Source: Candidatus Iainarchaeum sp. (GTDB taxonomy: Archaea > Iainarchaeota > Iainarchaeia > Iainarchaeales > JAZDFD01). From it: a DNA stretch of 64,000 nucleotides. Location of the stretch: contig JAZDFD010000028.1 in NCBI GenBank assembly GCA_043808155.1, positions 6,697 to 70,696 of the forward strand. Reading direction: 5' to 3'. The notes under the pieces were generated by a model, which saw nothing but the letters and a program-made list of their open reading frames with translations, ran no database searches and had not been told where the DNA came from. Below are positions 10,129-50,314 of this stretch, in pieces; positions within the stretch are counted from its first letter, which is position 1, and every line of letters starts with the position of its first letter. Position numbers and translations under genes: made by a program.

Positions 10129-10194
10129 TGTGCGAACACAAAGTGTGAGCACGTCCAACCTTGTGTTGGACACAAGCTCGAGGATTGAGCCTCG
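10129..10194 (+). repeat. Palindromic element (type B core CAAGCTCGAGGATTGAGCCTCG) immediately 5' of tRNA-Asp
   Basis: 22-nt core identical at 10173, 19894 and 53420; hairpins GTGC-GA-ACAC-AAA-GTGT-GA-GCAC and GTCCAAC/GTTGGAC. Confidence 0.85.
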
Positions 10195-10195
10195 T

Positions 10196-10267
10196 GCCCT
10201 TGTAGTCTAGTGGTTAGGATGCTGCCCTGTCGAGGCGGCGACCCGGGTCCGAATCCCGGCGGGGGCG
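10196..10267 (+). tRNA. tRNA-Asp (GTC)
   Basis: Cloverleaf: acceptor GCCCTTG/CGGGGGC, anticodon arm CTGCC-CTGTCGA-GGCGG, T arm CCGGG-TCCGAAT-CCCGG, discriminator G. Confidence 0.93.
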
Positions 10268-10386
10268 TATAGTGCTGCCGAAGGTGCACGGATTGCCAAC
10301 GAATCCTTTCGTTGCGGCGGGGGCGTATAGTGCTGCCGAAGGTGCACGGATCTCCACCGGATCTTTCCGGTGTGACGGGGGCGCCA
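10268..10386 (+). repeat. Two tandem 58-bp hairpin units, each ending in a copy of the tRNA 3' end; CCA follows the last copy
   Basis: TATAGTGCTGCCGAAGGTGCACGGAT at 10268 and 10326; CGGGGGCG at 10260, 10318 and 10376; CCA at 10384. Confidence 0.9.
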
Positions 10387-10460
10387 GCATGTTTGGAAGA
10401 ATGACTAAAAGGAAATATTTATTAGTAGAAAAAACATTATTTTAAGAATGAGGTGATTTT

Positions 10461-40764: not shown

Positions 40765-41187
40765 ATGGCTGCAGAAAAAAAAGTGAAAAAGGAAACAAAA
40801 GAAAAGAAAGCAGTCAAAGAAACAAAGAAAGCTGGAAAAACACCAGTAAAAGAAAAGAAAGACGATAAAAAAACTGAGAAAGTTAAACAGCTCTCAGCAA
40901 AAGAAACAACATCAAGTGAAGTTAAAGGTAAATTTTATTCAATTGTGAAACACCCTTTGATTTCAGAAAAAGCAGTTGGGATGATTGAAACACAAAACAA
41001 ATTAACTTTTGTTATTGAAAAAGGTTTTACTAAAAGTGAAGTTAAAAGGGCAGTAGAACAAATGTATAATGTAAAAGTTGACCGCGTCCAAGTAGTTAAT
41101 GATATGAAAGGAAGGAAAAAAGCAATTGTTAGAATAAACAAACAATACCGCGCAGATGAAATTGCAACAAAATTAGGGATATTGTAA
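40765..41187 (+). CDS. rpl23: Ribosomal protein uL23 with Lys/Glu-rich N-terminal extension
   Basis: PLISEKA...NKLTF...KKAIV. Confidence 0.94.
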   Translation: MAAEKKVKKETKEKKAVKETKKAGKTPVKEKKDDKKTEKVKQLSAKETTSSEVKGKFYSIVKHPLISEKAVGMIETQNKLTFVIEKGFTKSEVKRAVEQMYNVKVDRVQVVNDMKGRKKAIVRINKQYRADEIATKLGIL

Positions 41188-41197
41188 GGTGTAAATT

Positions 41198-41275
41198 TTG
41201 AAAAACCATAATTATTACTGTGGCATTGAAAATGCCACACATAAATCGGAGTACCCGTACGAAATCGGGTTGTGA
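41198..41275 (+). other. Type A palindromic element with 25-codon bridging ORF (MKNHNYYCGIENATHKSEYPYEIGL)
   Basis: ATTATTAC, hairpin GTGGCATT-GAA-AATGCCAC, then ACATAAATCGGAGTACCCGTACGAAATCGGGT; TTG start after AGGTG. Confidence 0.85.
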
Positions 41276-41279
41276 TAAC

Positions 41280-42011
41280 ATGCCTGGAAGACTAAAAACA
41301 CAAAGAAGAGGTAGAGGGACTCCGAGATACCTGGCCTCAAATAAGGGGATTACATGTACATATATTAATTATACAGATGAACAAAAGAAAGATGTATTAT
41401 TTGGCGAAGTTATTAGTTTGATAAAAACAACTGCAAGAAACAGTATTGTTGCAATTGAGAGATTTATAATAGACGGTAAGGAAACAGACTCACAAGTAAT
41501 AGCTGCAGAAGGGTTAAGTGTTGGTCAGAAAATCCAATACGGGACTAATGCAGAACTTGCAATCGGAAATGTTTTACCACTTTCGAAGATTCCGGAGGGG
41601 TGCCCTATATTCAATATTGAAAAAGAAAGTGGGGATGGCGGAACATTTGTAAAAAGCAGCGGGATTTACGCAATATTAGTTACAAAGGACAAGAAAAATG
41701 CTTACATTAAATTACCATCAGGAAAAACAAAACCATTCACCCTCTTGGCAAGAGCAACAATTGGATGTTCAGCATGCGGTGGAAGAACTGAAAAACCTTT
41801 CGTCAAAGCAGGAGCCAAATATTTTGCAATGAAAAGAAAAAGGAAAATGTGGCCAGTTGTAAGAGGTGTTGCAATGAACGCAGCATACCACCCACACGGT
41901 GGTGAACAGCACCATGTTGGTAAGAGTAAGTCTGTATCAAGACACGCTTCACCAGGAAGAAAGGTTGGTGCAATTGCTTCGAAGAGAACAGGAAGGAAAA
42001 AGAAAAACTAG
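41280..42011 (+). CDS. rpl2: Ribosomal protein uL2
   Basis: QRRGRG, VRGVAMN...HPHGG, PGRKVG; start set to ATG 41280. Confidence 0.96.
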   Translation: MPGRLKTQRRGRGTPRYLASNKGITCTYINYTDEQKKDVLFGEVISLIKTTARNSIVAIERFIIDGKETDSQVIAAEGLSVGQKIQYGTNAELAIGNVLPLSKIPEGCPIFNIEKESGDGGTFVKSSGIYAILVTKDKKNAYIKLPSGKTKPFTLLARATIGCSACGGRTEKPFVKAGAKYFAMKRKRKMWPVVRGVAMNAAYHPHGGEQHHVGKSKSVSRHASPGRKVGAIASKRTGRKKKN

Positions 42012-42021
42012 GGTGTGTTAG

Positions 42022-42429
42022 ATGGCAAGAGTAGAAGAAACATGGCGCGGTAAAAAGATCGAAGATCTTAAATCAATGGATATTTCAGAATTTATGAAAT
42101 TGATAGATTCAAGAGCAAGAAGAAGTATGAAAAGAGGTTTTGATAAAAAGCTCATGAAACAGATTGACAATTATGCTGAAAAAATCAAAGATGGAAAATA
42201 CCAAAAACCAATAAAAACACACCTGAGAGACACGATTGTGATTCCAAAAATGCTGGGACTTAAATTTGCAGTTTACAGAGGAAACAAGTTTGAGGATATT
42301 GACATCGTACCAAATATGCTCGGGCATTTTTTGGGTGAATTTGCACTTACAAGAAAAAGACTTCAGCATGGAAAGGCAGGAATTGGTGCAACAAGATCAA
42401 GTACTGCACTGAAGACAAAGAGAGTCTAA
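42022..42429 (+). CDS. rps19: Ribosomal protein uS19
   Basis: IKTHLRD, GHFLGEF, GIGATRSS. Confidence 0.96.
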   Translation: MARVEETWRGKKIEDLKSMDISEFMKLIDSRARRSMKRGFDKKLMKQIDNYAEKIKDGKYQKPIKTHLRDTIVIPKMLGLKFAVYRGNKFEDIDIVPNMLGHFLGEFALTRKRLQHGKAGIGATRSSTALKTKRV

Positions 42430-42437
42430 TGTGAAAA

Positions 42438-42575
42438 ATGATGATTAAGAAATATGAAAAAGCGGGTTATGACAGTGCCATCGCAGATGGCACGCGGAGC
42501 ACCCCGTACGCAACCCTATTTCAACTCAGGGTTGAAATGGGCGCATTTCACAAAAAAGTGAAATAGCGTCGAGTA
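42438..42575 (+). other. Composite palindromic element with 42-codon bridging ORF (42438-42566)
   Basis: GTGCCATC-GCA-GATGGCAC plus CGGAGCACCCCGTACG (type A-like), fused to a double-hairpin module also seen at 19729-19783. Confidence 0.82.
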
Positions 42576-42585
42576 GTGATTGAAA

Positions 42586-43059
42586 ATGGCTAAAAGAGAA
42601 TATCAGAAAAAAGTGAAAAATGAAGCAAAGATTGCAAAAGCGATAGCTGCGAATAAGCCAATTTCAGTTAAATATGCGACAGAAATGTGCAGAGAAATTA
42701 AGGGAAGACCTGTAAACAAAGTTGAGAAATTTTTAAACAGAATAATGAACAAAGAGGATTTCTTACCTCTTAAAAGATATGTGAAGAAAGTAGCACACAG
42801 AAAAGGTGACTCAAAATCAGGAACTAAAACAGGAAAATATCCAATAAGAGTTGCAAATGCATTTCTTGAACTTATTCAAACTGCAAAAGCAAATGCAGAT
42901 TTCAAAGGCATTGATACAGAATCGCTTTTGGTTTATCATGCATTTGCATCAACAGGTTTCAGAAGACACAGTGCACAGGCAAAAGGTCACATCGGCGGAA
43001 AGCGCAGAAGAAGTAAATCAACACATATTGAAATCATGCTTATAGAGGGAAAAAAATGA
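42586..43059 (+). CDS. rpl22: Ribosomal protein uL22
   Basis: ISVKYATEMCREIKG, GKYP, THIEI. Confidence 0.94.
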   Translation: MAKREYQKKVKNEAKIAKAIAANKPISVKYATEMCREIKGRPVNKVEKFLNRIMNKEDFLPLKRYVKKVAHRKGDSKSGTKTGKYPIRVANAFLELIQTAKANADFKGIDTESLLVYHAFASTGFRRHSAQAKGHIGGKRRRSKSTHIEIMLIEGKK

Positions 43060-44018
43060 TTGAAAGAACATTTATCAAACAGGCAATGAAAAAAATAGAG
43101 CTTGAGAAGTACATGAGAACCAATCTTGACAAAGCAGGGTTTACACACTTAGACATTGTGAAAACACCGTTGGTTACAAGAATCGTGCTTAATGTTACAA
43201 AACCAGGTCTGGCAATTGGAAAAGGCGGACAGACAATAAGACAACTTACAGAAGATATTGAAACAAAATTTGGAATTAACAATCCTCAGATAGAAATTAA
43301 GGAAATTGAAAATCCAACATTAGATGCACAGGCAACAGTTGACAAAATGGTTGCATTACTTGAAAGAGGTTTCAGCTGGAGAAGTATTGCATTCAGAACT
43401 GTAAAAGACATTATGGCTGCAGGTGCGCAGGGTTGTGAACTTGTGCTTAGCGGAAAATTAACAGGAAAAGGCGGAAGAAAAAGAAAGCAGAGAATTGCAG
43501 AAGGATATATGAAAAAAGTTGGACACCAAACAGAGTTAGTTGATTATGCAAAAAAATCCGCATACCCAAAAGCAGGTGCAATTGGAATTAAATTGAGAAT
43601 AATTAAACCAGGAGTACAGTTCCCAGATAAAATAAAAATCAATGACATAATCACAAAGAAAAAAGCTCCTATCGTAGAAAAAGAAAATGCAGATGCTGGA
43701 AAAACAGAAGTTACTGGTATCAAAGAAGAAGTGAAAATCGAAGTTAAAGAAAAAACTGAAAAGAAAGCAGAAGTTAAAGTTGAGAAGAAAGATAAGAAAC
43801 CAGTAGCATATAAAAAAGATGCTAAAAAAGAAGTGACGAACGAAAAGAAAACAGATAAAAAGGAAGCAAAGAAATTTGATAAACCAAAAGAAGAAAAGAA
43901 AAAATCAGATGACAAGAAAGAAACCAAAGTGAAAGAAGAAAAAGTTGACGACAAAAAAACTGAAAAGAAAGAAGTGAAAAAAGAAGATAAAAAATCAGAT
44001 GAGAAAAAAGATAAGTGA
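43056..44018 (+). CDS. rps3: Ribosomal protein uS3 with long Lys/Glu-rich C-terminal tail
   Basis: KPGLAIGKGG KH motif, GAQGCELVLSGKL. Confidence 0.96.
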   Translation: MIERTFIKQAMKKIELEKYMRTNLDKAGFTHLDIVKTPLVTRIVLNVTKPGLAIGKGGQTIRQLTEDIETKFGINNPQIEIKEIENPTLDAQATVDKMVALLERGFSWRSIAFRTVKDIMAAGAQGCELVLSGKLTGKGGRKRKQRIAEGYMKKVGHQTELVDYAKKSAYPKAGAIGIKLRIIKPGVQFPDKIKINDIITKKKAPIVEKENADAGKTEVTGIKEEVKIEVKEKTEKKAEVKVEKKDKKPVAYKKDAKKEVTNEKKTDKKEAKKFDKPKEEKKKSDDKKETKVKEEKVDDKKTEKKEVKKEDKKSDEKKDK

Positions 44019-44023
44019 TATTT

Positions 44024-44110
44024 ATGAATACGGGAAAAAATTATTACCGCAGTATCGAACGAAGTGAAGATACTGCACATAAATCGGAGCACCCGTACGA
44101 AATCGGGTAG
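44024..44110 (+). other. Type A palindromic element with 28-codon bridging ORF (MNTGKNYYRSIERSEDTAHKSEHPYEIG)
   Basis: GCAGTATC-GAACGAAGTGAA-GATACTGC hairpin plus conserved core; three consecutive stops TAG TGA TAG. Confidence 0.87.
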
Positions 44111-44118
44111 TGATAGTT

Positions 44119-44328
44119 ATGACAAATAAAGAAGCTAAATCATTCAGGGAGCTTCCAAAAGAAGAACTGAATGAAAAATTAGTGGATTTGCAAACAGAGC
44201 TTGCAAAAGAAAGAGCAACAGTTGCGTCTGGTACGCGACCTGAAAATCCTGGGAACATCAGGAAGCTCAGAAGAAATATTGCAAGACTTAAAACAATAAT
44301 TAATGAAAAAAATGAGGTGACTAAGTAG
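44119..44328 (+). CDS. rpl29: Ribosomal protein uL29
   Basis: ENPGNIRKLRRNIARLKT. Confidence 0.95.
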   Translation: MTNKEAKSFRELPKEELNEKLVDLQTELAKERATVASGTRPENPGNIRKLRRNIARLKTIINEKNEVTK

Positions 44329-44330
44329 CA

Positions 44331-44633
44331 ATGGAAGATATTTGTCCTAAATGCGGTCTCCCGCAAAACCTTTGTGTTTGCCAGGAGATTGCGAAGGAAA
44401 GCCAAAAAATAAAAATAAGAACTGACAAAAGAAGATTTGGTAAATTAGTGACAATTGTTTCGGGTTTGGATGAATCAAAAAGTGCAGATCAATTATGCAA
44501 GGAACTAAAAAGAAAACTTGCGTGTGGTGGCACTGTGAGAAACTCGGAAATTTTATTGCAAGGAAACCATAGTAAAAAAGTGAAAGCCTTTCTGCTAAAG
44601 CAGGGATATAAAGAGGAATTAATTGATGATTAA
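44331..44633 (+). CDS. sui1: Translation initiation factor aIF1/SUI1
   Basis: CPKCGLP...LKRKLACGGT...LQGNH. Confidence 0.95.
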   Translation: MEDICPKCGLPQNLCVCQEIAKESQKIKIRTDKRRFGKLVTIVSGLDESKSADQLCKELKRKLACGGTVRNSEILLQGNHSKKVKAFLLKQGYKEELIDD

Positions 44634-44937
44634 GGGAAAACATTATGAAATAACACAAAAAAATCTGCCTGCACATGAGCTTATCGGGCTTAATGCAAAG
44701 GTTGTGAAAAGTGTTGATTCAAAAAAAACCGGAGTTAAGGGAAAAGTTGTAAATGAAACAAAAAATATTCTGGAATTGGAGAACAACAGCGTTATAAAAA
44801 AAATCCCGAAAAAAGAAGTTGTGTTTGAATTTGAAATTGGAAATGAAAAAATTATAATTGACGGAAAAATGTTAAATGAAAAACCAGAGAATCGTGTAAA
44901 GGAGTTTTGGAGGAAATACCATGGAAAACTGCAATGA
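44623..44937 (+). CDS. rnp1: RNase P protein Rpp29
   Basis: HELIGL...GKVVNETKN...KPENR; synteny. Confidence 0.92.
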   Translation: MMIKGKHYEITQKNLPAHELIGLNAKVVKSVDSKKTGVKGKVVNETKNILELENNSVIKKIPKKEVVFEFEIGNEKIIIDGKMLNEKPENRVKEFWRKYHGKLQ

Positions 44938-45256
44938 CCCAAAGTGCCCAAAATGCGGCAATATCAAAGTAAGGGGCAATATTTTCACAGGTATTGTAAC
45001 ATCTGCAAAAGCAGATAAGACAGTCACTGTTGAAAGACAGTTAGTTAAAAAAGTTAGAAAATATGAAAGATACAAAAAAATAAGATCCAAAATCCATGCA
45101 CACAATTCAAAATGTGTTTCAGCAAAAGAAGGCGACACAGTAAGAATTGGAGAAACAAGAAAATTAAGCAAAACAAAAAGTTTTGTTGTGATGGACATTC
45201 TTAACAAAGGGTCAGATGAAAAGCCAAAAACAGATAAGAAAAAGGTGAAAAAATGA
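44921..45256 (+). CDS. rps17: Ribosomal protein uS17
   Basis: CNDPKCP, KYERY, ETRKLSKTKSF. Confidence 0.96.
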   Translation: MENCNDPKCPKCGNIKVRGNIFTGIVTSAKADKTVTVERQLVKKVRKYERYKKIRSKIHAHNSKCVSAKEGDTVRIGETRKLSKTKSFVVMDILNKGSDEKPKTDKKKVKK

Positions 45257-45651
45257 AAGCAATCAGCGCCAGAAGGACCATGGGTTTAACACAAAAAAGC
45301 AGATGCGTTTGCGCAGACAACTCAGGCGCAAAAGAGGTTGAAATCATCACAGTTTTTGGTCACAAATCAAGAAAAAAGATGAGTCCAAAAGGCGGAATCG
45401 CAGATATGGTTAATGTTGTTGTAAAAAAAGGAAAACCCGAAATCAGAAAAAAAGTTGAGCGTGCAGTTATTGTAAGAGTGAAACAAGAATACAGAAGAGC
45501 AAATGGCATGAGAGTAAAATTCGAAGACAATGCAGTTGTTCTTGTGGATAATAAGGGAATTCCTAAAGGAAGTGAAATTAAAGGTGCAGTTGCAAAAGAA
45601 GCTGCAGAAAGATGGGTAAAAATCGGGGGCATTGCCTCAGTAGTAGTATAG
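45253..45651 (+). CDS. rpl14: Ribosomal protein uL14
   Basis: ADNSGAK, FEDNAVV. Confidence 0.96.
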   Translation: MKAISARRTMGLTQKSRCVCADNSGAKEVEIITVFGHKSRKKMSPKGGIADMVNVVVKKGKPEIRKKVERAVIVRVKQEYRRANGMRVKFEDNAVVLVDNKGIPKGSEIKGAVAKEAAERWVKIGGIASVVV

Positions 45652-45660
45652 GTGGATTAA

Positions 45661-46137
45661 ATGAAAAGCTCAAAACCAAGAAAACAAAGAAAAGCGCTTT
45701 ACACAAGAACTGTTCATAAAAAACAGAATGACTTAGCAGGGCATCTGAGTAAAGAACTCAGAAAAGAGCTGAAACAAAGATCAATTCCTCTGAGAAAAGA
45801 AGACAAAGTTAAGATTATGAGAGGGTCACACAAGGCAAGAGAAGGAAAAATAATTGATGTTAATTACACCAAGGGATTTGTGTATATTGAAAAAGTTATC
45901 AGAAAAAAGGCAGACGGAACTGAAGTGCCGGTGCCGGTAAGAGCGTCAAATGTAATGGTTGTTGGCCTTTACAGAGATGATGACAGAAGAATTAAAAGAA
46001 AAACTCTGAAAAAAGTCACAAAATCCGAAAAAAAAGACAAGAAAGAAAAAGCTTATGACAAAAAAGCATATACAAAAGTGAAAGAAGAGAAATCTGAAAA
46101 AAAGGAAGATAATAAAGCTAAGGCGAAGGTGAAATAA
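45661..46137 (+). CDS. rpl24: Ribosomal protein uL24
   Basis: SSKPRKQRK, LSKELR, VKIMRG. Confidence 0.95.
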   Translation: MKSSKPRKQRKALYTRTVHKKQNDLAGHLSKELRKELKQRSIPLRKEDKVKIMRGSHKAREGKIIDVNYTKGFVYIEKVIRKKADGTEVPVPVRASNVMVVGLYRDDDRRIKRKTLKKVTKSEKKDKKEKAYDKKAYTKVKEEKSEKKEDNKAKAKVK

Positions 46138-46856
46138 TGGCTAAAAAAGGAAGCAAAAAATCAGAAAAAAGAATAAGCACTGATAAAGTCAGAAACATAA
46201 AGAAAAAAGAAAAAACATGGACAATAAAGGCAGAGCCAGGACCTCACAAAAAATCAACTTCCGTACCTTTAGGTTTTATTTTGAGAGACCTTCTTGAAGT
46301 AGCACAAAATTTGAGAGAAGTTAAACAGATACTTAACAGTAAAAGCGTCAAAGTAGACGGAACTTTAAGAACAAGTTACAGATTCCCTGTAGGTCTTTTC
46401 GATGTTGTTTCATTCAACAAAGATAAAAAAGGCTACAGATTAGTTTATGATTTTAAAGGCAGATTAATGGTCAAGGAAATTGAAGGCAAAGAACTTAACA
46501 AAAAAATATGTAAAATTACTAATAAAAAAACAGGGAAAACAGGAATTACTGAACTTGTAACAAATGATGGAAGAATATTCAAAGAAAAAAATGCGAAATA
46601 CAAAGTTGGTGATTCATTAGAAATTGAACTTCCCGGCCAGAAAATTTCAAAGTCACTTGAATTCGCAAAAGGGAACACAGCATATGTTTCAGGCGGAACG
46701 CACATTTCAGCAATGGGAAAAATAACAGAAATTGTTGCAGGAACAATGAAAAGAAAAACACTTGTTACATTGAAGACTGCAGACAAAGAAGAGTTCAGTA
46801 CAACTGAAAATAACATAATTGTTATTGGTAAAGAGAAAGGGGAAATAGATATTTAA
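46137..46856 (+). CDS. rps4e: Ribosomal protein eS4
   Basis: PGPH, FPVGLFDV, NDGR. Confidence 0.95.
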   Translation: MAKKGSKKSEKRISTDKVRNIKKKEKTWTIKAEPGPHKKSTSVPLGFILRDLLEVAQNLREVKQILNSKSVKVDGTLRTSYRFPVGLFDVVSFNKDKKGYRLVYDFKGRLMVKEIEGKELNKKICKITNKKTGKTGITELVTNDGRIFKEKNAKYKVGDSLEIELPGQKISKSLEFAKGNTAYVSGGTHISAMGKITEIVAGTMKRKTLVTLKTADKEEFSTTENNIIVIGKEKGEIDI

Positions 46857-46872
46857 AATTAGAGTGAGTTTT

Positions 46873-47385
46873 ATGACAGAAAATACAATGCGCACAATCA
46901 TTGTCGAGAAAGTTACTGTAAATATGGGTGTAGGCCAAGCTGGCGACGAACTCAAAAAATCAAAAACAGTAATTGAGACAATTACAGGTGCAAAAGCAAT
47001 TGAAACAAAGTGTAAAGTTAAACAACCAAAATGGGACATCAGACCAGGTTTACCTATTGGAATTAAAGTTACACTTAGAAAAAAACAGGCAACTGACTTT
47101 TTGAAACGTGCGATTAATGCAAAGCAAAACATAATCAAAAAAAAGAGTTTTGATATGCAGGGTAACTTCGGATTTGGAATCAAAGAACATATTGATCTTC
47201 CAGGAGTTAAATATGACCCTAAATTAGGAATACGGGGTCTTGATGTTTTAGTAACACTTAAAAGAAACGGACAGCGTGTTAAGAAAAGAAAAATTGCAAA
47301 AACAAAAATTGGCAAAAAGCACATAATAACAAAAAAAGACGCAATGCAATTCATGAAAGAACAATTTGGAGTTGAAGTTGAATGA
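46873..47385 (+). CDS. rpl5: Ribosomal protein uL5
   Basis: [30 protein letters not shown]. Confidence 0.96.
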
Positions 47386-47552
47386 GTTCCAAAACAAAAG
47401 GTCCAAAAAAAGATCTAAAAAAAGAAAAACAAGCAAGAGTATGCACAAATTGCGGGACTAGAAATGCAATCATAAGAAAATACAATCTCAATGTCTGCAG
47501 AAGATGCTTTAAAGAATTAGCAGAAAAATTAGGCTTTAGGAAATATGGTTAA
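47382..47552 (+). CDS. rps14: Ribosomal protein uS14 (56 aa, below the ORF-track cutoff)
   Basis: Manual translation MSSKTK...CTNCG...[26 protein letters not shown]; synteny. Confidence 0.95.
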
Positions 47553-47568
47553 ATGAGGGGTGGTAAAA

Positions 47569-47961
47569 ATGACATTAGTAGATCCAATAGCAAACGCAAT
47601 GATAAGCATTAAGAATAGCGACATTGCCTCAAAAAAAGAATGTATATTTCGACCTGCATCAAAACTTCTGGGAAAAATCTTAGAAGTTATGCAAAAAAAA
47701 GGATACATCGGAATTTATGAATTCATAGATGACGGACAAGAAGGTATTTACAAAATAGAACTTAAAGGAAAAATTAATGATTGTAAAGCAATAAAGCCAA
47801 GATATGCAGTTAAGAAAGATGGATTTGAAAAATTTGAAAAAAGATATTTACCTTCAAAGGATGTTGGAATTTTGATTGTTTCAACACCAGAGGGTGTATT
47901 AACACATAAAGAAGCAAAGGAATCCAATGTCGGGGGCAGATTATTAGCTTATATTTATTAA
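47569..47961 (+). CDS. rps8: Ribosomal protein uS8
   Basis: DPIANA, IKPRY, GGRLLAY. Confidence 0.96.
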
Positions 47962-47972
47962 TGGTGTTTTGA

Positions 47973-48515
47973 ATGAAAACAGGATTTGTGGAAGAAATAA
48001 TTGAAGTGCCGGAAGGCATTGAATGTGAAATTCAGAAAAAGACAGTTACTGTTAAGAAAGGAGATAAAACAATCACAAAAACATTTGATATGATTGGAGT
48101 AGTTTTCAAAAAAGAAGGGAACAGAGTTCAGATTTCCACAAAATATCCTAAGAAAAAAACTGCAGCAATGCTGAAAACAGCAGCGGCTCATTTGAAAAAT
48201 ATGATTAACGGACTTCAGGAAGAATATGTGTATAAGCTCGCAATTATTTATTCACACTTTCCAATGACTGTTACAGTTAAAGATGGATTTTTAGAAATAA
48301 ACAACTTTGCAGGTGAGAAAAAAACCAGAAAAGCAAAGATTATGGCTAATACAAAAGTTGAAGTTAAGGGGAAAGAAGTTACAGTTAGATCACATAACAA
48401 GGAAAATGCAGGTCAGACTACGGCAAATATTGAATCTGCAACAAAAGTAAAAGGAAAAGATAAAAGAATTTTTCAAGATGGCATTTGGATTACTGAAAAA
48501 CCAAAGAAAAGATAA
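47973..48515 (+). CDS. rpl6: Ribosomal protein uL6
   Basis: YSHFP, NFAGEK, DKRIFQDGI. Confidence 0.96.
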   Translation: MKTGFVEEIIEVPEGIECEIQKKTVTVKKGDKTITKTFDMIGVVFKKEGNRVQISTKYPKKKTAAMLKTAAAHLKNMINGLQEEYVYKLAIIYSHFPMTVTVKDGFLEINNFAGEKKTRKAKIMANTKVEVKGKEVTVRSHNKENAGQTTANIESATKVKGKDKRIFQDGIWITEKPKKR

Positions 48516-48526
48516 TGGGTGAAAAC

Positions 48527-49078
48527 ATGGCAACTGCAGAAAAACACAAAACTGATAAAAAAGAAGTGACGAAAGCAAAGAAAACATCAGTTACAACAAA
48601 AAAAGCAGATACTAAAACAAAAACTGCAGAAAAAAAAGAAACAACTGCAAAGAAAAAAACTGCAGAAAAAAAACCAGGTGCTAAAAAAACAATTAAAAAA
48701 AGCAGTGCTGCAAAAAAAGCACAGGCATTAATTAAAAAGAAAGTTAAGAAACCAAGTTTCAGAGGAAGATTTGGTTCGAGAAAATTCAGAAGAAAAAGTA
48801 ACGCAAAATGGGACAAATGGAGAAAACCGCGTGGTATTGATATCAAAGACACCCAGGAAAACGGAACTAGTCCAAGAACAGGTTATGGTACTTGCAAACT
48901 CATAAAGACTATGCACCCTTCAGGATATTATGAAAAAATGATATTTAATCCAAGAGATTTGGACGGTATTGATGCAGAAAGATTTGCATTGAGAATTTCA
49001 GCAGGTGTAGGAAAGAAAAAAAGGTCTGAAATTGCAAAAAAAGCAAGGGAAATGGGACTACGTATTTTAAACAGGTGA
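48527..49078 (+). CDS. rpl32e: Ribosomal protein eL32 with Lys/Thr-rich N-terminal extension
   Basis: WRKPRGID, GYG, HPSG. Confidence 0.94.
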   Translation: MATAEKHKTDKKEVTKAKKTSVTTKKADTKTKTAEKKETTAKKKTAEKKPGAKKTIKKSSAAKKAQALIKKKVKKPSFRGRFGSRKFRRKSNAKWDKWRKPRGIDIKDTQENGTSPRTGYGTCKLIKTMHPSGYYEKMIFNPRDLDGIDAERFALRISAGVGKKKRSEIAKKAREMGLRILNR

Positions 49079-49082
49079 AAAA

Positions 49083-49160
49083 ATGATTTACAAAAAAAAT
49101 TATTACCGTGGGATTGTAAATCCCACACATAAATCGGAGCACCCGTACGAAATCGGGTAG
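49083..49160 (+). other. Type A palindromic element with 25-codon bridging ORF (MIYKKNYYRGIVNPTHKSEHPYEIG)
   Basis: GTGGGATT-GTA-AATCCCAC hairpin plus conserved core; AGGTGA RBS before the ATG. Confidence 0.87.
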
Positions 49161-49169
49161 GTGAAATGA

Positions 49170-49610
49170 ATGAAACTAGACCAAGTAAAGAGATTAGCCG
49201 CAGATGTTCTTAACGTGGGCGTAACCAGAATATGGATTGACCCTAAAGAAGTTGGGAATGTTGCAGAAGTTATTACAAAAGATGATGTAAGAGCTTTAGT
49301 TGCAGACGGAGTAATCAAGAAAAGAAGAGTGCAGGCACAAAGCCACGGCCATGCACGTTTATTAGCTGAAAAGAAAAGTAAAGGTCTGAAAAAAGGAAAA
49401 GGTAAAAGAAAAGGAAAAGTTAATGCAAGAACACATAGAAAGAAAAAGTGGATTAAAACAGTCCGTGCACAAAGAGATGAACTTAAAAAACTTAAAACAG
49501 AAAACCCTGAAGCAGTTGCAGAAGCAAATTACCATTCTATTTACAGAAGAATAAAAGGCGGATATTACAAAGGTAGAAAATACGTGAGAAGCGCAGTACT
49601 TAAGAAGTGA
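49170..49610 (+). CDS. rpl19e: Ribosomal protein eL19
   Basis: KRLAADVL...RIWIDP, WIKTVRAQR, KGG. Confidence 0.95.
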   Translation: MKLDQVKRLAADVLNVGVTRIWIDPKEVGNVAEVITKDDVRALVADGVIKKRRVQAQSHGHARLLAEKKSKGLKKGKGKRKGKVNARTHRKKKWIKTVRAQRDELKKLKTENPEAVAEANYHSIYRRIKGGYYKGRKYVRSAVLKK

Positions 49611-49720
49611 TGATTATGAATTTAGAAGAAAATTATTACCGTGGTTTTGAGCAAAACGAAAAACCACACATAACTCGGAGCACCCGTACGAAATCGGGTA
49701 GTGCAATACTTAAGAAGTGA
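49610..49720 (+). other. Type A palindromic element with 36-codon bridging ORF ending in a duplicate of the rpl19e 3' end
   Basis: GTGGTTTT-GAGCAAAACGA-AAAACCAC hairpin plus core; flanking repeats at 49590-49618 and 49700-49729. Confidence 0.85.
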
Positions 49721-49726
49721 TAAATT

Positions 49727-50314
49727 ATGGCAAACAAAGCAACATACGATGTTCAATTCAAAAGAAGAAGCAATGGTAAAACCAATTACAAAAAAAGACT
49801 GGCATTAGTTAAATCAGGAAAGCCAAGATTAGTTGTAAGGAAAACCAACAGCAGAATAATTGTACAGATTATTGCATATGAGAGACCCGGTGACAAGGTT
49901 ATTGTAAGTGCAACATCAGTACAGCTTAAAAAATATGGCTGGGCAGGAAACAAAAATATACCTTCAGCATATTTAACAGGATTACTTTGCGGAATGCGCG
50001 CAAAAGAAGCAAAAATTAATCAAGCAGTTTTAGATATTGGATTTAGAACACCTGTTCACATGTCAGTTCCATTCGCAGCACTAAAAGGTGCACTGGATGC
50101 AGGGCTTGACATTCCATTTGATGAAACCGCACTTCCAAAAGAAGACAGAATCACAGGAAAACATATTGAAAACTATGCAAATTCATTGGATAGCGAAGAA
50201 ATTAACAAAAAGTTTTCAAAAATGATTAAAAATAATGTAAATCCAAAAGAAATTACAAAAATATTCCAAAATACTAAAGAGAAAATTGTGGGAAACAGTA
50301 ATGTAAAAGAGTGA
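49727..50314 (+). CDS. rpl18: Ribosomal protein uL18
   Basis: GKTNYKKRL, RLVVRKTN, SAYLTG. Confidence 0.96.
   Translation: MANKATYDVQFKRRSNGKTNYKKRLALVKSGKPRLVVRKTNSRIIVQIIAYERPGDKVIVSATSVQLKKYGWAGNKNIPSAYLTGLLCGMRAKEAKINQAVLDIGFRTPVHMSVPFAALKGALDAGLDIPFDETALPKEDRITGKHIENYANSLDSEEINKKFSKMIKNNVNPKEITKIFQNTKEKIVGNSNVKE

Follow-up and report, generated by a model that had tools for sequence, protein, structure and literature searches.

What are the hairpins that separate some of the ribosomal-protein genes in the genome of Candidatus Iainarchaeum sp.? The window analyzed here, 64,000 nt of contig JAZDFD010000028.1 (positions 6,697 to 70,696, forward strand), contains a ribosomal-protein operon in which the gaps L23/L2, S3/L29, L32e/L19e and L19e/L18 hold elements of one layout, and the S19/L22 gap holds a divergent one. 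The initial annotation described this layout, with a different 8-bp stem in each of the four gaps, a fifth stem (GTGCCATC/GATGGCAC) and all copies on the + strand, and it noted that the junctions elsewhere in the operon are tight. All of this is found in the sequence, and the list of open reading frames (ORFs) agrees on the tight junctions within 38.9 to 52 kb. Two explanations had been offered, a non-autonomous mobile family and a structured mRNA signal. We think it likely that the hairpins are copies of a mobile repeat of the Iainarchaeota that is small, non-autonomous and structure-dependent, and that they are not a conserved regulatory RNA of the operon. The copies in the operon are recent insertions.

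The unit is about 63 to 72 nt long. Its 5' module consists of an A-run, ATATTACC, a variable 8-bp hairpin (hp1) and ACATA, and its 3' module (..TCGGNNC, with the motif CGGNNC) ends in a GC-rich hairpin of 5 to 6 bp (hp2) with the loop NCGAAA. A 24-nt core, CGGAGYACCCGTACGAAATCGGGT, is present at four places in the window (41247, 44085, 49135 and 49676, all +) but nowhere in 100 dinucleotide shuffles, so the recurrence reported initially holds. Upstream of each core lie ATTATTAC(C/T), a perfect 8-bp hairpin that differs from copy to copy, and ACATAA(A/C)T. In the whole genome (1.08 Mb in 35 contigs, 88% complete), the core pattern has 12 sites, compared with none for a reversed control pattern. 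A covariance model, R1, was built from 20 of 22 aligned copies of this genome, leaving out two that lack the ACATA segment, and gave 45 matches at an E value of ≤0.1. With filters off, it scored the four window copies at 76 to 91 bits and the fifth, which is rearranged and composite, at 16 bits (E = 0.022). The genes downstream of the copies are L2, L29, L19e, L18 and L22 according to Pfam; the upstream genes L23, S3, L32e and S19 are named from their position. The copies and the flanking target duplications of copies 2, 3 and 4 are as follows (SD, Shine-Dalgarno sequence).

41209 to 41271, + strand: copy 1, L23/L2 junction (R1, 76.3 bits)
42464 to 42577, + strand: copy 5, S19/L22 junction, composite (R1, 16 bits, E = 0.022, at 42464 to 42533; fold)
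44014 to 44027, + strand: upstream target duplication of copy 2, AGTGATATTTATGA, a relic SD plus ATG (matches the downstream repeat, score 11)
44038 to 44109, + strand: copy 2, S3/L29 junction, hp1 GCAGTATC with a GA-flanked mini-hairpin as loop (R1, 85.3 bits)
44109 to 44122, + strand: downstream target duplication of copy 2, AGTGATAGTTATGA, the functional SD plus the L29 ATG
49073 to 49086, + strand: upstream target duplication of copy 3, AGGTGAAAAAATGA, containing the L32e stop and a relic start (from the empty-site sequence)
49087 to 49159, + strand: copy 3, L32e/L19e junction, including the A-rich 5' tail TTTACAAAAAAA (R1, 79.7 bits, at 49097 to 49159)
49159 to 49173, + strand: downstream target duplication of copy 3, AGGTGAAATGAATGA, SD plus the L19e ATG
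49590 to 49611, + strand: upstream target duplication of copy 4, AGCGCAGTACTTAAGAAGTGAT, the L19e 3' end and stop (2 mismatches in 22, score 16)
49630 to 49700, + strand: copy 4, L19e/L18 junction, hp1 GTGGTTTT, loop GAGCAAAACGA (R1, 91.4 bits)
49700 to 49721, + strand: downstream target duplication of copy 4

Copy 1 shows the parts in order: ATTATTACT, hp1 (GTGGCATT/GAA/AATGCCAC), ACATAAAT, CGGAGT and hp2 (ACCCG..CGGGT). In copy 3, hp1 reads GTGGGATT/GTA/AATCCCAC. Copy 5 starts with hp1 (GTGCCATC/GCA/GATGGCAC, 42476 to 42494), GCGGAGC and a truncated hp2 region, and the rest is a nested double hairpin, CCCTATTTCAAC..GTTGAAATGGG and GCATTTCAC..GTGAAATAGC. The operon copies occur in the sense orientation only.

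Close relatives are represented by contigs of groundwater strains that are about 93% identical (for example, 32 differences in 468 letters). Seven groundwater DNA runs, but no RNA run, were found to cover the region, the DNA runs in small shares; the contigs with empty sites come from two of them, X2 and X4, of one study. At L32e/L19e, contigs of X2 (sides of at least 255 nt) and X4 (175 nt) pass directly from 49081 to 49169 and read AGGTGAAAAAATGAAACTAG across the joint; therefore, the insertion duplicated AGGTGAAAAAATGA and added TTTACAAAAAAA plus the element. At L19e/L18, the joint leads from 49617 to 49727 (side of 201 nt in X2 and 70 nt in X4), and 16 other letters replace 109 nt. Contigs of both runs also skip 44023 to 44115 (93 nt) at S3/L29, with a joint from 44022 to 44116 and short sides of 24 and 31 nt, and 42465 to 42577 (113 nt) at S19/L22, with a joint from 42464 to 42578, unread letters in between and sides as short as 31 and 55 nt. 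Two of the five window sites are clearly empty in these strains, and two more are empty with short flanks. At L23/L2, X2 and X4 have a duplicated arrangement, a joint that goes back by 72 with 24 other letters resembling an hp2 variant; as read, this would be an extra or tandem copy. More distant relatives give the same picture: R1 had no match in the L19e loci of 29 of them. The L32e/L19e gap, 91 nt in our genome, is at most 26 nt in 27 of the 28 relatives measured (102 nt in the exception, which has no R1 match), and the L19e/L18 gap, 116 nt in our genome, is at most 17 nt in 27 of 28 (49 nt in the exception). Because the strains with about 93% identity lack the elements at the same junctions, a signal for mRNA processing or stability, as considered initially, finds no support as the explanation for their existence.

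New copies arrive at staggered breaks and duplicate 11 to 32 nt of the target. Flanking direct repeats with a score of at least 10 were found for 10 of 38 copies of our genome but for only 1.2% of 1,406 mismatched control pairs, and for 13 of 71 copies of relatives (60 loci) but for only 0.6% of 4,946 control pairs. Some repeats are perfect (32, 29 and 24 nt) and adjoin the element. The downstream repeat begins at the end of hp2 (offset −1 to 0), and the upstream repeat either adjoins the element or lies beyond an AT-rich tail; the element has a precise end at hp2 and a variable, A-rich tail at the opposite end. No target motif was evident at the starts of the duplications in our own or the relatives' copies, and the scan for flanking repeats gave no clear target duplication for copy 1. 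With empty sites in close and distant relatives, target duplications, copies elsewhere in the genome and a patchy spread, the proposal of a non-autonomous mobile family stands.

The duplications in the operon regenerate the SD and start codon of the downstream gene, which would show how an insertion into the most conserved operon of the cell can be tolerated. The relic start opens a frame of 25 to 36 codons across the element that stops 5 to 10 nt before the true start in four of four copies; that of copy 2 (44024 to 44110, 28 codons) stops 9 nt ahead of the L29 ATG, and that of copy 3 (49083 to 49160) spans the element with 25 codons. With such a frame, ribosomes would stay coupled and the hairpins would melt, and for this reason the operon insertions might be tolerated. 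A secondary effect of the elements on translation coupling is possible.

The hairpins themselves are conserved as structures. The genome search and covariance model suggested in the initial annotation yielded the 45 R1 matches, and both hairpins show strong covariation. In RNAalifold, 22 copies of our genome gave 13 pairs, 10 of which had compensatory changes. For 74 copies from relatives, 69 of them distinct, the share of paired cells is 94.7%; it is 61.0% in shuffles and does not exceed 46.9% for structures slid by 1 to 3 columns. Changes on both sides occur in 14 of 14 pairs, and the covariation score is 0.827 (0.216 in shuffles). These figures overstate independence, since the alignment follows the model and its sequences share ancestry. 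The pairs are nearly all Watson-Crick, with only about 2% G.T. On the strand as drawn, G.T pairs (21 + 5) exceed A.C pairs (8 + 2), which hints weakly that it is the sense strand that folds. Most of the invariant bases are unpaired (ATTA, TTG.A at the loop start, CGG, and C-G-A-A in the loop), and the longer hp1 loops are mini-hairpins closed by tandem G-A pairs, as first described. Presumably, the element moves via a folded single-stranded intermediate. The family is modular, because the 5' module is also joined to at least three other 3' hairpin modules, identical hp1 stems recur with different 3' modules, and a further double-hairpin module is nested at varying places in several copies, including the fifth window copy. 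In one place (contig C2, 2400 to 2600), two copies overlap head to head with one hp1 in common.

The repeat is spread patchily among relatives. R1 matches were found in 16 of 40 relatives from the same order, none of them from the same family, and in 43 of 150 genomes of a phylum-wide sample at E ≤ 1e-4, with 1 to 19 copies each; our genome is the richest. By family, the shares are 12 of 17 and 6 of 7 but 0 of 15, 0 of 12 and 1 of 20. The family accounts for many "unannotated" gaps and overlong tRNA introns in Iainarchaeota genomes. Directly upstream of copies in two relatives (locus L079 of G032 and L075 of G018), there are C-box/D-box-like motifs (ATGATGA ... CTGA, twice) and a shared GGGCGGACTGAGG; these may be C/D box small RNA genes, as targets or neighbors.

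The main clue is the association of the repeat with tRNA genes, which the initial annotation did not contain. ARAGORN predicts 44 tRNAs in our genome. Eight copies lie antisense with hp2 0 to 1 nt from a tRNA 3' end (Pro-TGG, Ile-TAT, Ala-CGC, CTA anticodon, Leu-CAA, Ala-TGC, Pro-CGG and His), and a ninth antisense copy lies 5 nt from the 3' end of tRNA-Gln-CTG. Four more copies reside within unusually long tRNA introns: that of tRNA-Glu-TTC is antisense, with hp2 directly on the 5' exon; those of tRNA-Arg-CCT and the CTA-anticodon tRNA are also antisense; and that of tRNA-Tyr is sense, with the hp2 end 36 nt from the tRNA 3' end, the expected start of the 3' exon, although ARAGORN places the boundary differently. 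A sense copy lies 2 nt upstream of the 5' end of tRNA-Ser-GCT, with a second copy in tandem, and behind a sense copy downstream of tRNA-Arg-CCT, the final 20 nt of the tRNA are repeated. The rule is that the hp2 end faces the boundary of a mature tRNA segment, whichever side the copy lies on. Relatives follow it as well: of the 71 copies, nine are antisense and no more than 3 nt away from a tRNA 3' end, two are sense and no more than 4 nt away from a 5' end, tRNA-Ser(GCT) introns of three genomes have an antisense copy beside the 5' exon, and one tRNA-Tyr intron has a sense copy beside the 3' exon, as in our genome. Several target-element-target-element-target arrays were also seen in relatives. 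Protein genes, finally, have about eleven sense copies of our genome just upstream of them, with GGTGA and a start codon no more than about 40 nt away; among these genes are the five of the window as well as those for L10e, an AlaX-like protein and carbamoyl-phosphate synthase. No antisense copy was seen upstream of a protein gene in the table of contexts for this genome.

Do these positions mean that the repeat serves the host? A module spread through its usefulness could insulate tRNA flanks, terminate tRNA transcription where it lies antisense, by its hairpin and U-run, or act in mRNA processing, stability or SD masking. Copies that abut tRNA ends exactly are found again in several families of the order, the introns of tRNA-Tyr and tRNA-Ser(GCT) hold copies of the same orientation in different genomes, and upstream of protein genes only the sense orientation occurs, all of which would fit. 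So would the complementarity of ATTACC to the SD GGTGAT: several predicted folds pair the two, and for several operon copies the fold of minimum free energy places the SD under a closed three-way junction. We regard this predicted pairing as a secondary matter. A host function is very improbable in view of the operon copies, absent from the 93%-identical strains and from the L19e loci of all 29 more distant relatives, of the 107 of 150 sampled phylum genomes that have no match, and of the 31 of 44 tRNAs in our own genome that have neither an abutting nor an intronic copy. Moreover, the promoters of element-free tRNAs resemble TTTAAA boxes near −32, by visual reading of the flanks, and are unlike the element.

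A mobile repeat, the reading that we prefer, may owe its position to RNA processing. The hp2 terminus would coincide with the cuts made by RNase P, RNase Z or the splicing endonuclease, and this would explain why hp2 adjoins the boundaries of mature tRNA segments. The repeat could be a retroposon akin to short interspersed nuclear elements (SINEs): an RNA freed by tRNA processing would be copied into DNA at nicks by target-primed synthesis, which would give variable duplications, and landing in tRNA introns would lengthen them. The RNA might be an antisense 3' trailer that starts at its 5' end with the RNase Z cut (the hp2 side) and stops at its 3' end with an oligo-U terminator (the A-run in sense). 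Or it might be a 5' leader that stops at the RNase P cut. The match of the hp2 terminus to processing sites at many tRNAs and in many genomes speaks for such a route. Most of 37 copies listed have an A-run of 4 to 8 a few nucleotides upstream of ATTAC, which on the other strand would be a U-run terminator, and element-free tRNAs end directly in T-runs. The duplications are long and variable (11 to 32 nt), one terminus is precise and the other variable, hp1 stems are found again, unchanged, beside different 3' modules, which is what template switching would produce, and G.T exceeds A.C by 26 to 10 on the sense strand. We nevertheless hold this route to be possible but doubtful: the reverse transcriptase family RVT_1 was found neither in our genome nor in single-contig relatives with several identical copies (G015), the element is carried by 3 of 7 relatives with a reverse transcriptase and by 13 of 33 without one, and the tails are AT-rich and not homopolymeric, with about half of the clean insertions having no tail.

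Alternatively, the repeat may be a DNA transposon derivative moved in trans by an enzyme that recognizes the folded hairpins or ATATTACC / CGG..NCGAAA, and this enzyme could be encoded on a virus, on a plasmid, in a host organism or in the unassembled 12% of the genome. The nearly perfect Watson-Crick hairpins with G-N-A-type loops and the invariance of single-stranded or loop bases speak for this route. Direct repeats as variable as 8 to 514 bp are reported for the bacterial insertion sequences (ISs) IS1634 and IS1549 (PMC2266710); by this precedent, long and variable duplications by themselves need no RNA. Relatives positive for DDE_Tnp_1 (IS4 type) carry the element somewhat more often than negative ones (9 of 15 versus 7 of 25), a weak trend among genomes that are not independent. 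We hold this route, too, to be possible but doubtful, about as probable as the one through RNA. Terminal inverted repeats were not found when the first 16 nt were compared with the reverse-complemented last 16 nt of 20 copies (5.85 matches versus 5.83 in shuffles), two relatives (G029 and G032) carry copies without DDE_Tnp_1, and the position of the termini at RNA-processing sites is not obviously explained. Furthermore, neither DDE_Tnp_1, Y1_Tnp or Cas1 nor a multicopy transposase-like ORF was found in our genome, the one richest in copies.

Several results weigh against a mobile repeat or against parts of the evidence for it. No gene for a mobilizing enzyme was found in our 88%-complete genome: searches for RVT_1 (PF00078), Y1_Tnp (PF01797, the IS200-type TnpA/RAYT, which was detected in 6 of 14 reference genomes as a control), Cas1 (PF01867) and DDE_Tnp_1 each gave zero hits, so the cognate HUH or reverse transcriptase gene that the initial annotation had suggested looking for did not turn up. 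Clustering of paralogues among 1,069 ORFs gave no multicopy transposase-like ORF but type II secretion system ATPases, KaiC-like, phospholipase-like and transglutaminase-like proteins, a peptidase and one unknown. Among the 40 relatives, neither candidate tracks the element: a reverse transcriptase is present in 7 (3 of 16 carriers and 4 of 24 noncarriers), and the element occurs in 5 of 12 relatives with TnpB above the cutoff and in 11 of 28 without. The contigs with empty sites all come from one study, and two of the four joints have short flanks. Clear flanking repeats accompany only a fraction of the copies, and no target duplication was found for the antisense copies that abut tRNAs, which may have arisen differently or be functional. 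One flanking sequence, CAACTCAAC.CTGAGCC (about 18 nt), occurs beside copies in two distant genomes (contig C2, 2400 to 2600, of our genome and locus L088 of G015); it is probably another module and not a target duplication. Finally, part of the covariation could stem from quasi-palindrome correction at the DNA level and not from selection. Since such correction could keep palindromes near perfect, covariation alone is no proof of an RNA function.

Two divergent TnpB-like (Cas12f1-like_TNB) ORFs of 429 and 414 amino acids are present in our genome (C23:25545-25742 and C7:9042-9236), far from any copy.

How does the repeat compare with known systems? Repetitive extragenic palindromic sequences (REPs), which carry a GTAG/CGTC head, and IS200/IS605 elements are not known to duplicate their target on insertion. 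Like REPs and bacterial interspersed mosaic elements (BIMEs) with their REP-associated tyrosine transposases (RAYTs), and like the palindrome-associated transposable elements (PATEs) of IS200/IS605, the repeat is a short, intergenic, non-autonomous hairpin present in many copies, and a folded single strand is probably what is recognized. Unlike them, it has no GTAG/CGTC head, its hp1 varies from copy to copy, it makes duplications of 11 to 32 nt, and its genome has no Y1 transposase match. The analogy to REP/IS200-type HUH systems drawn initially is therefore unsupported, given the missing Y1 transposase and the long duplications. MITEs (miniature transposable elements with inverted repeats), such as Correia/NEMIS and the Sulfolobus SM elements, resemble the repeat in being small, noncoding, flanked by target duplications and polymorphic between strains. 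The duplications of the repeat are long and variable and not of fixed length, however, and a parent IS was not found; because it has no terminal inverted repeats, it is not a classical MITE. For integration of the casposon/CRISPR type, the Cas1 integrase was not found.

In eukaryotes, tRNA-linked retroelements include tRNA-related SINEs, Ty3 and the Dictyostelium TRE. The repeat shares with these elements the variable duplications, one precise and one A-rich end, the link to tRNAs and the chimeric modules. It differs in being prokaryotic, in that a reverse transcriptase partner was not found and an internal promoter is not shown, and in being linked to RNA-processing boundaries and not to transcription start sites. 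Of the features of SINEs, it has the structural half, that is, variable duplications and an A-rich tail, which is AT-rich and not always present. With IS1634 and IS1549, it has in common variable and unusually long target duplications, but these ISs are autonomous DDE elements of 1.5 to 2 kb with inverted ends, and a DDE_Tnp_1 gene was not found in our genome. A scan of the window against Rfam 15 at gathering scores gave two tRNAs and nothing else, and a scan of 41100 to 49800 at E ≤ 10 gave four weak matches, none on an element, in line with the initial view that this is not a described family. A search of open-access works returned nothing that describes it. The family is previously undescribed and lies outside the REP, MITE and IS-derived classes.

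The finding bears on how archaeal tRNA introns arise. In Caldiarchaeum, a 1.8-kb recombinase-bearing mobile element has been implicated in the gain of a tRNA-Thr intron, according to the abstract of the report (PMC3293823), and the abstract of a 2026 Asgard survey states that the route of intron arrival "remains open," without naming a general one (bioRxiv 10.64898/2026.10.13.758758). As far as these sources go, the present case is similar in that related sequences occur in introns of different tRNAs and in tRNA flanks and that a mobile element is implicated; it is different in that the introns contain a defined structured repeat of about 70 nt with independent evidence of mobility. The repeat populates long introns of several tRNAs in several genomes and has its precise terminus at tRNA-processing sites. 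With a defined repeat and insertion polymorphism in natural populations, the question of how tRNA introns arrive becomes directly testable, and genome-reduced DPANN archaea of groundwater offer a clean case, open to experiment, in which the mobile element is very small. That the repeat is a counterpart of SINEs in prokaryotes is conceivable, although rather unlikely: by-products of tRNA maturation (leaders, trailers and introns with a terminal hairpin) would be copied back without a canonical reverse transcriptase and would land by tRNA exons and in the anticodon-loop region, creating or enlarging archaeal tRNA introns. If true, this would be a concrete route for their arrival.

Other readings of the element were tried and rejected. 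A pseudoknot between the junction and the hp2 loop was dismissed, since the junction varies, the loop is invariant and there is no covariation. By eye, there is neither a pseudouridylation pocket nor a D box as in H/ACA or C/D guide RNAs. A small conserved peptide does not fit either: a frame (..NYYR..HKSEHPYEIG) is common to three copies of the window, but copy 4 and a copy on contig C31 (read by eye) use other frames, and the copies beside tRNAs have no start. A promoter, with ATATTA/ACATAT as the TATA box and transcription starting at the hp2 end, was rejected as the main explanation because element-free tRNAs show the TTTAAA-type boxes, because the tRNA-Ser copy has no ACATA and because antisense copies would fire into tRNAs.

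Some neighboring sequences deserve mention. At C20:3956-4108, the tRNA that ARAGORN calls with a CTA anticodon (labeled Pyl) has a 75-nt intron containing an element copy; the anticodon call may be an artifact of intron placement. The trailers of tRNA-Leu-CAA and tRNA-Ala-TGC (C26:56259-56530 and C26:83642-83820) have more than 110 nt of homology, which extends past the element itself, and share ..TTTCGGAAAC.GTG.CA.AGCA.AAAGCGT; therefore, a larger composite was placed after both tRNAs. Other families of hairpin modules hug tRNAs with the same polarity. In the window, tRNA-Asp (10196 to 10267; area 10130 to 10390) has a module ending in ..CAAGCTCGAGGATTGAGCCTCG directly 5' and two tandem GTGCTGCCGAAGGTGCAC-type modules 3', each ending in a duplicate of the last 7 to 10 nt of the tRNA. 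About 20 further tRNAs of the genome are flanked by related modules, which read in the sense direction at 5' ends and as reverse complements at 3' ends. Two ribosomal proteins encoded next to copies are extended: S3 has a lysine/glutamate-rich C-terminal extension of about 125 residues (43640 to 44018), and L32e has an N-terminal extension rich in lysine, alanine and threonine (48515 to 48740).

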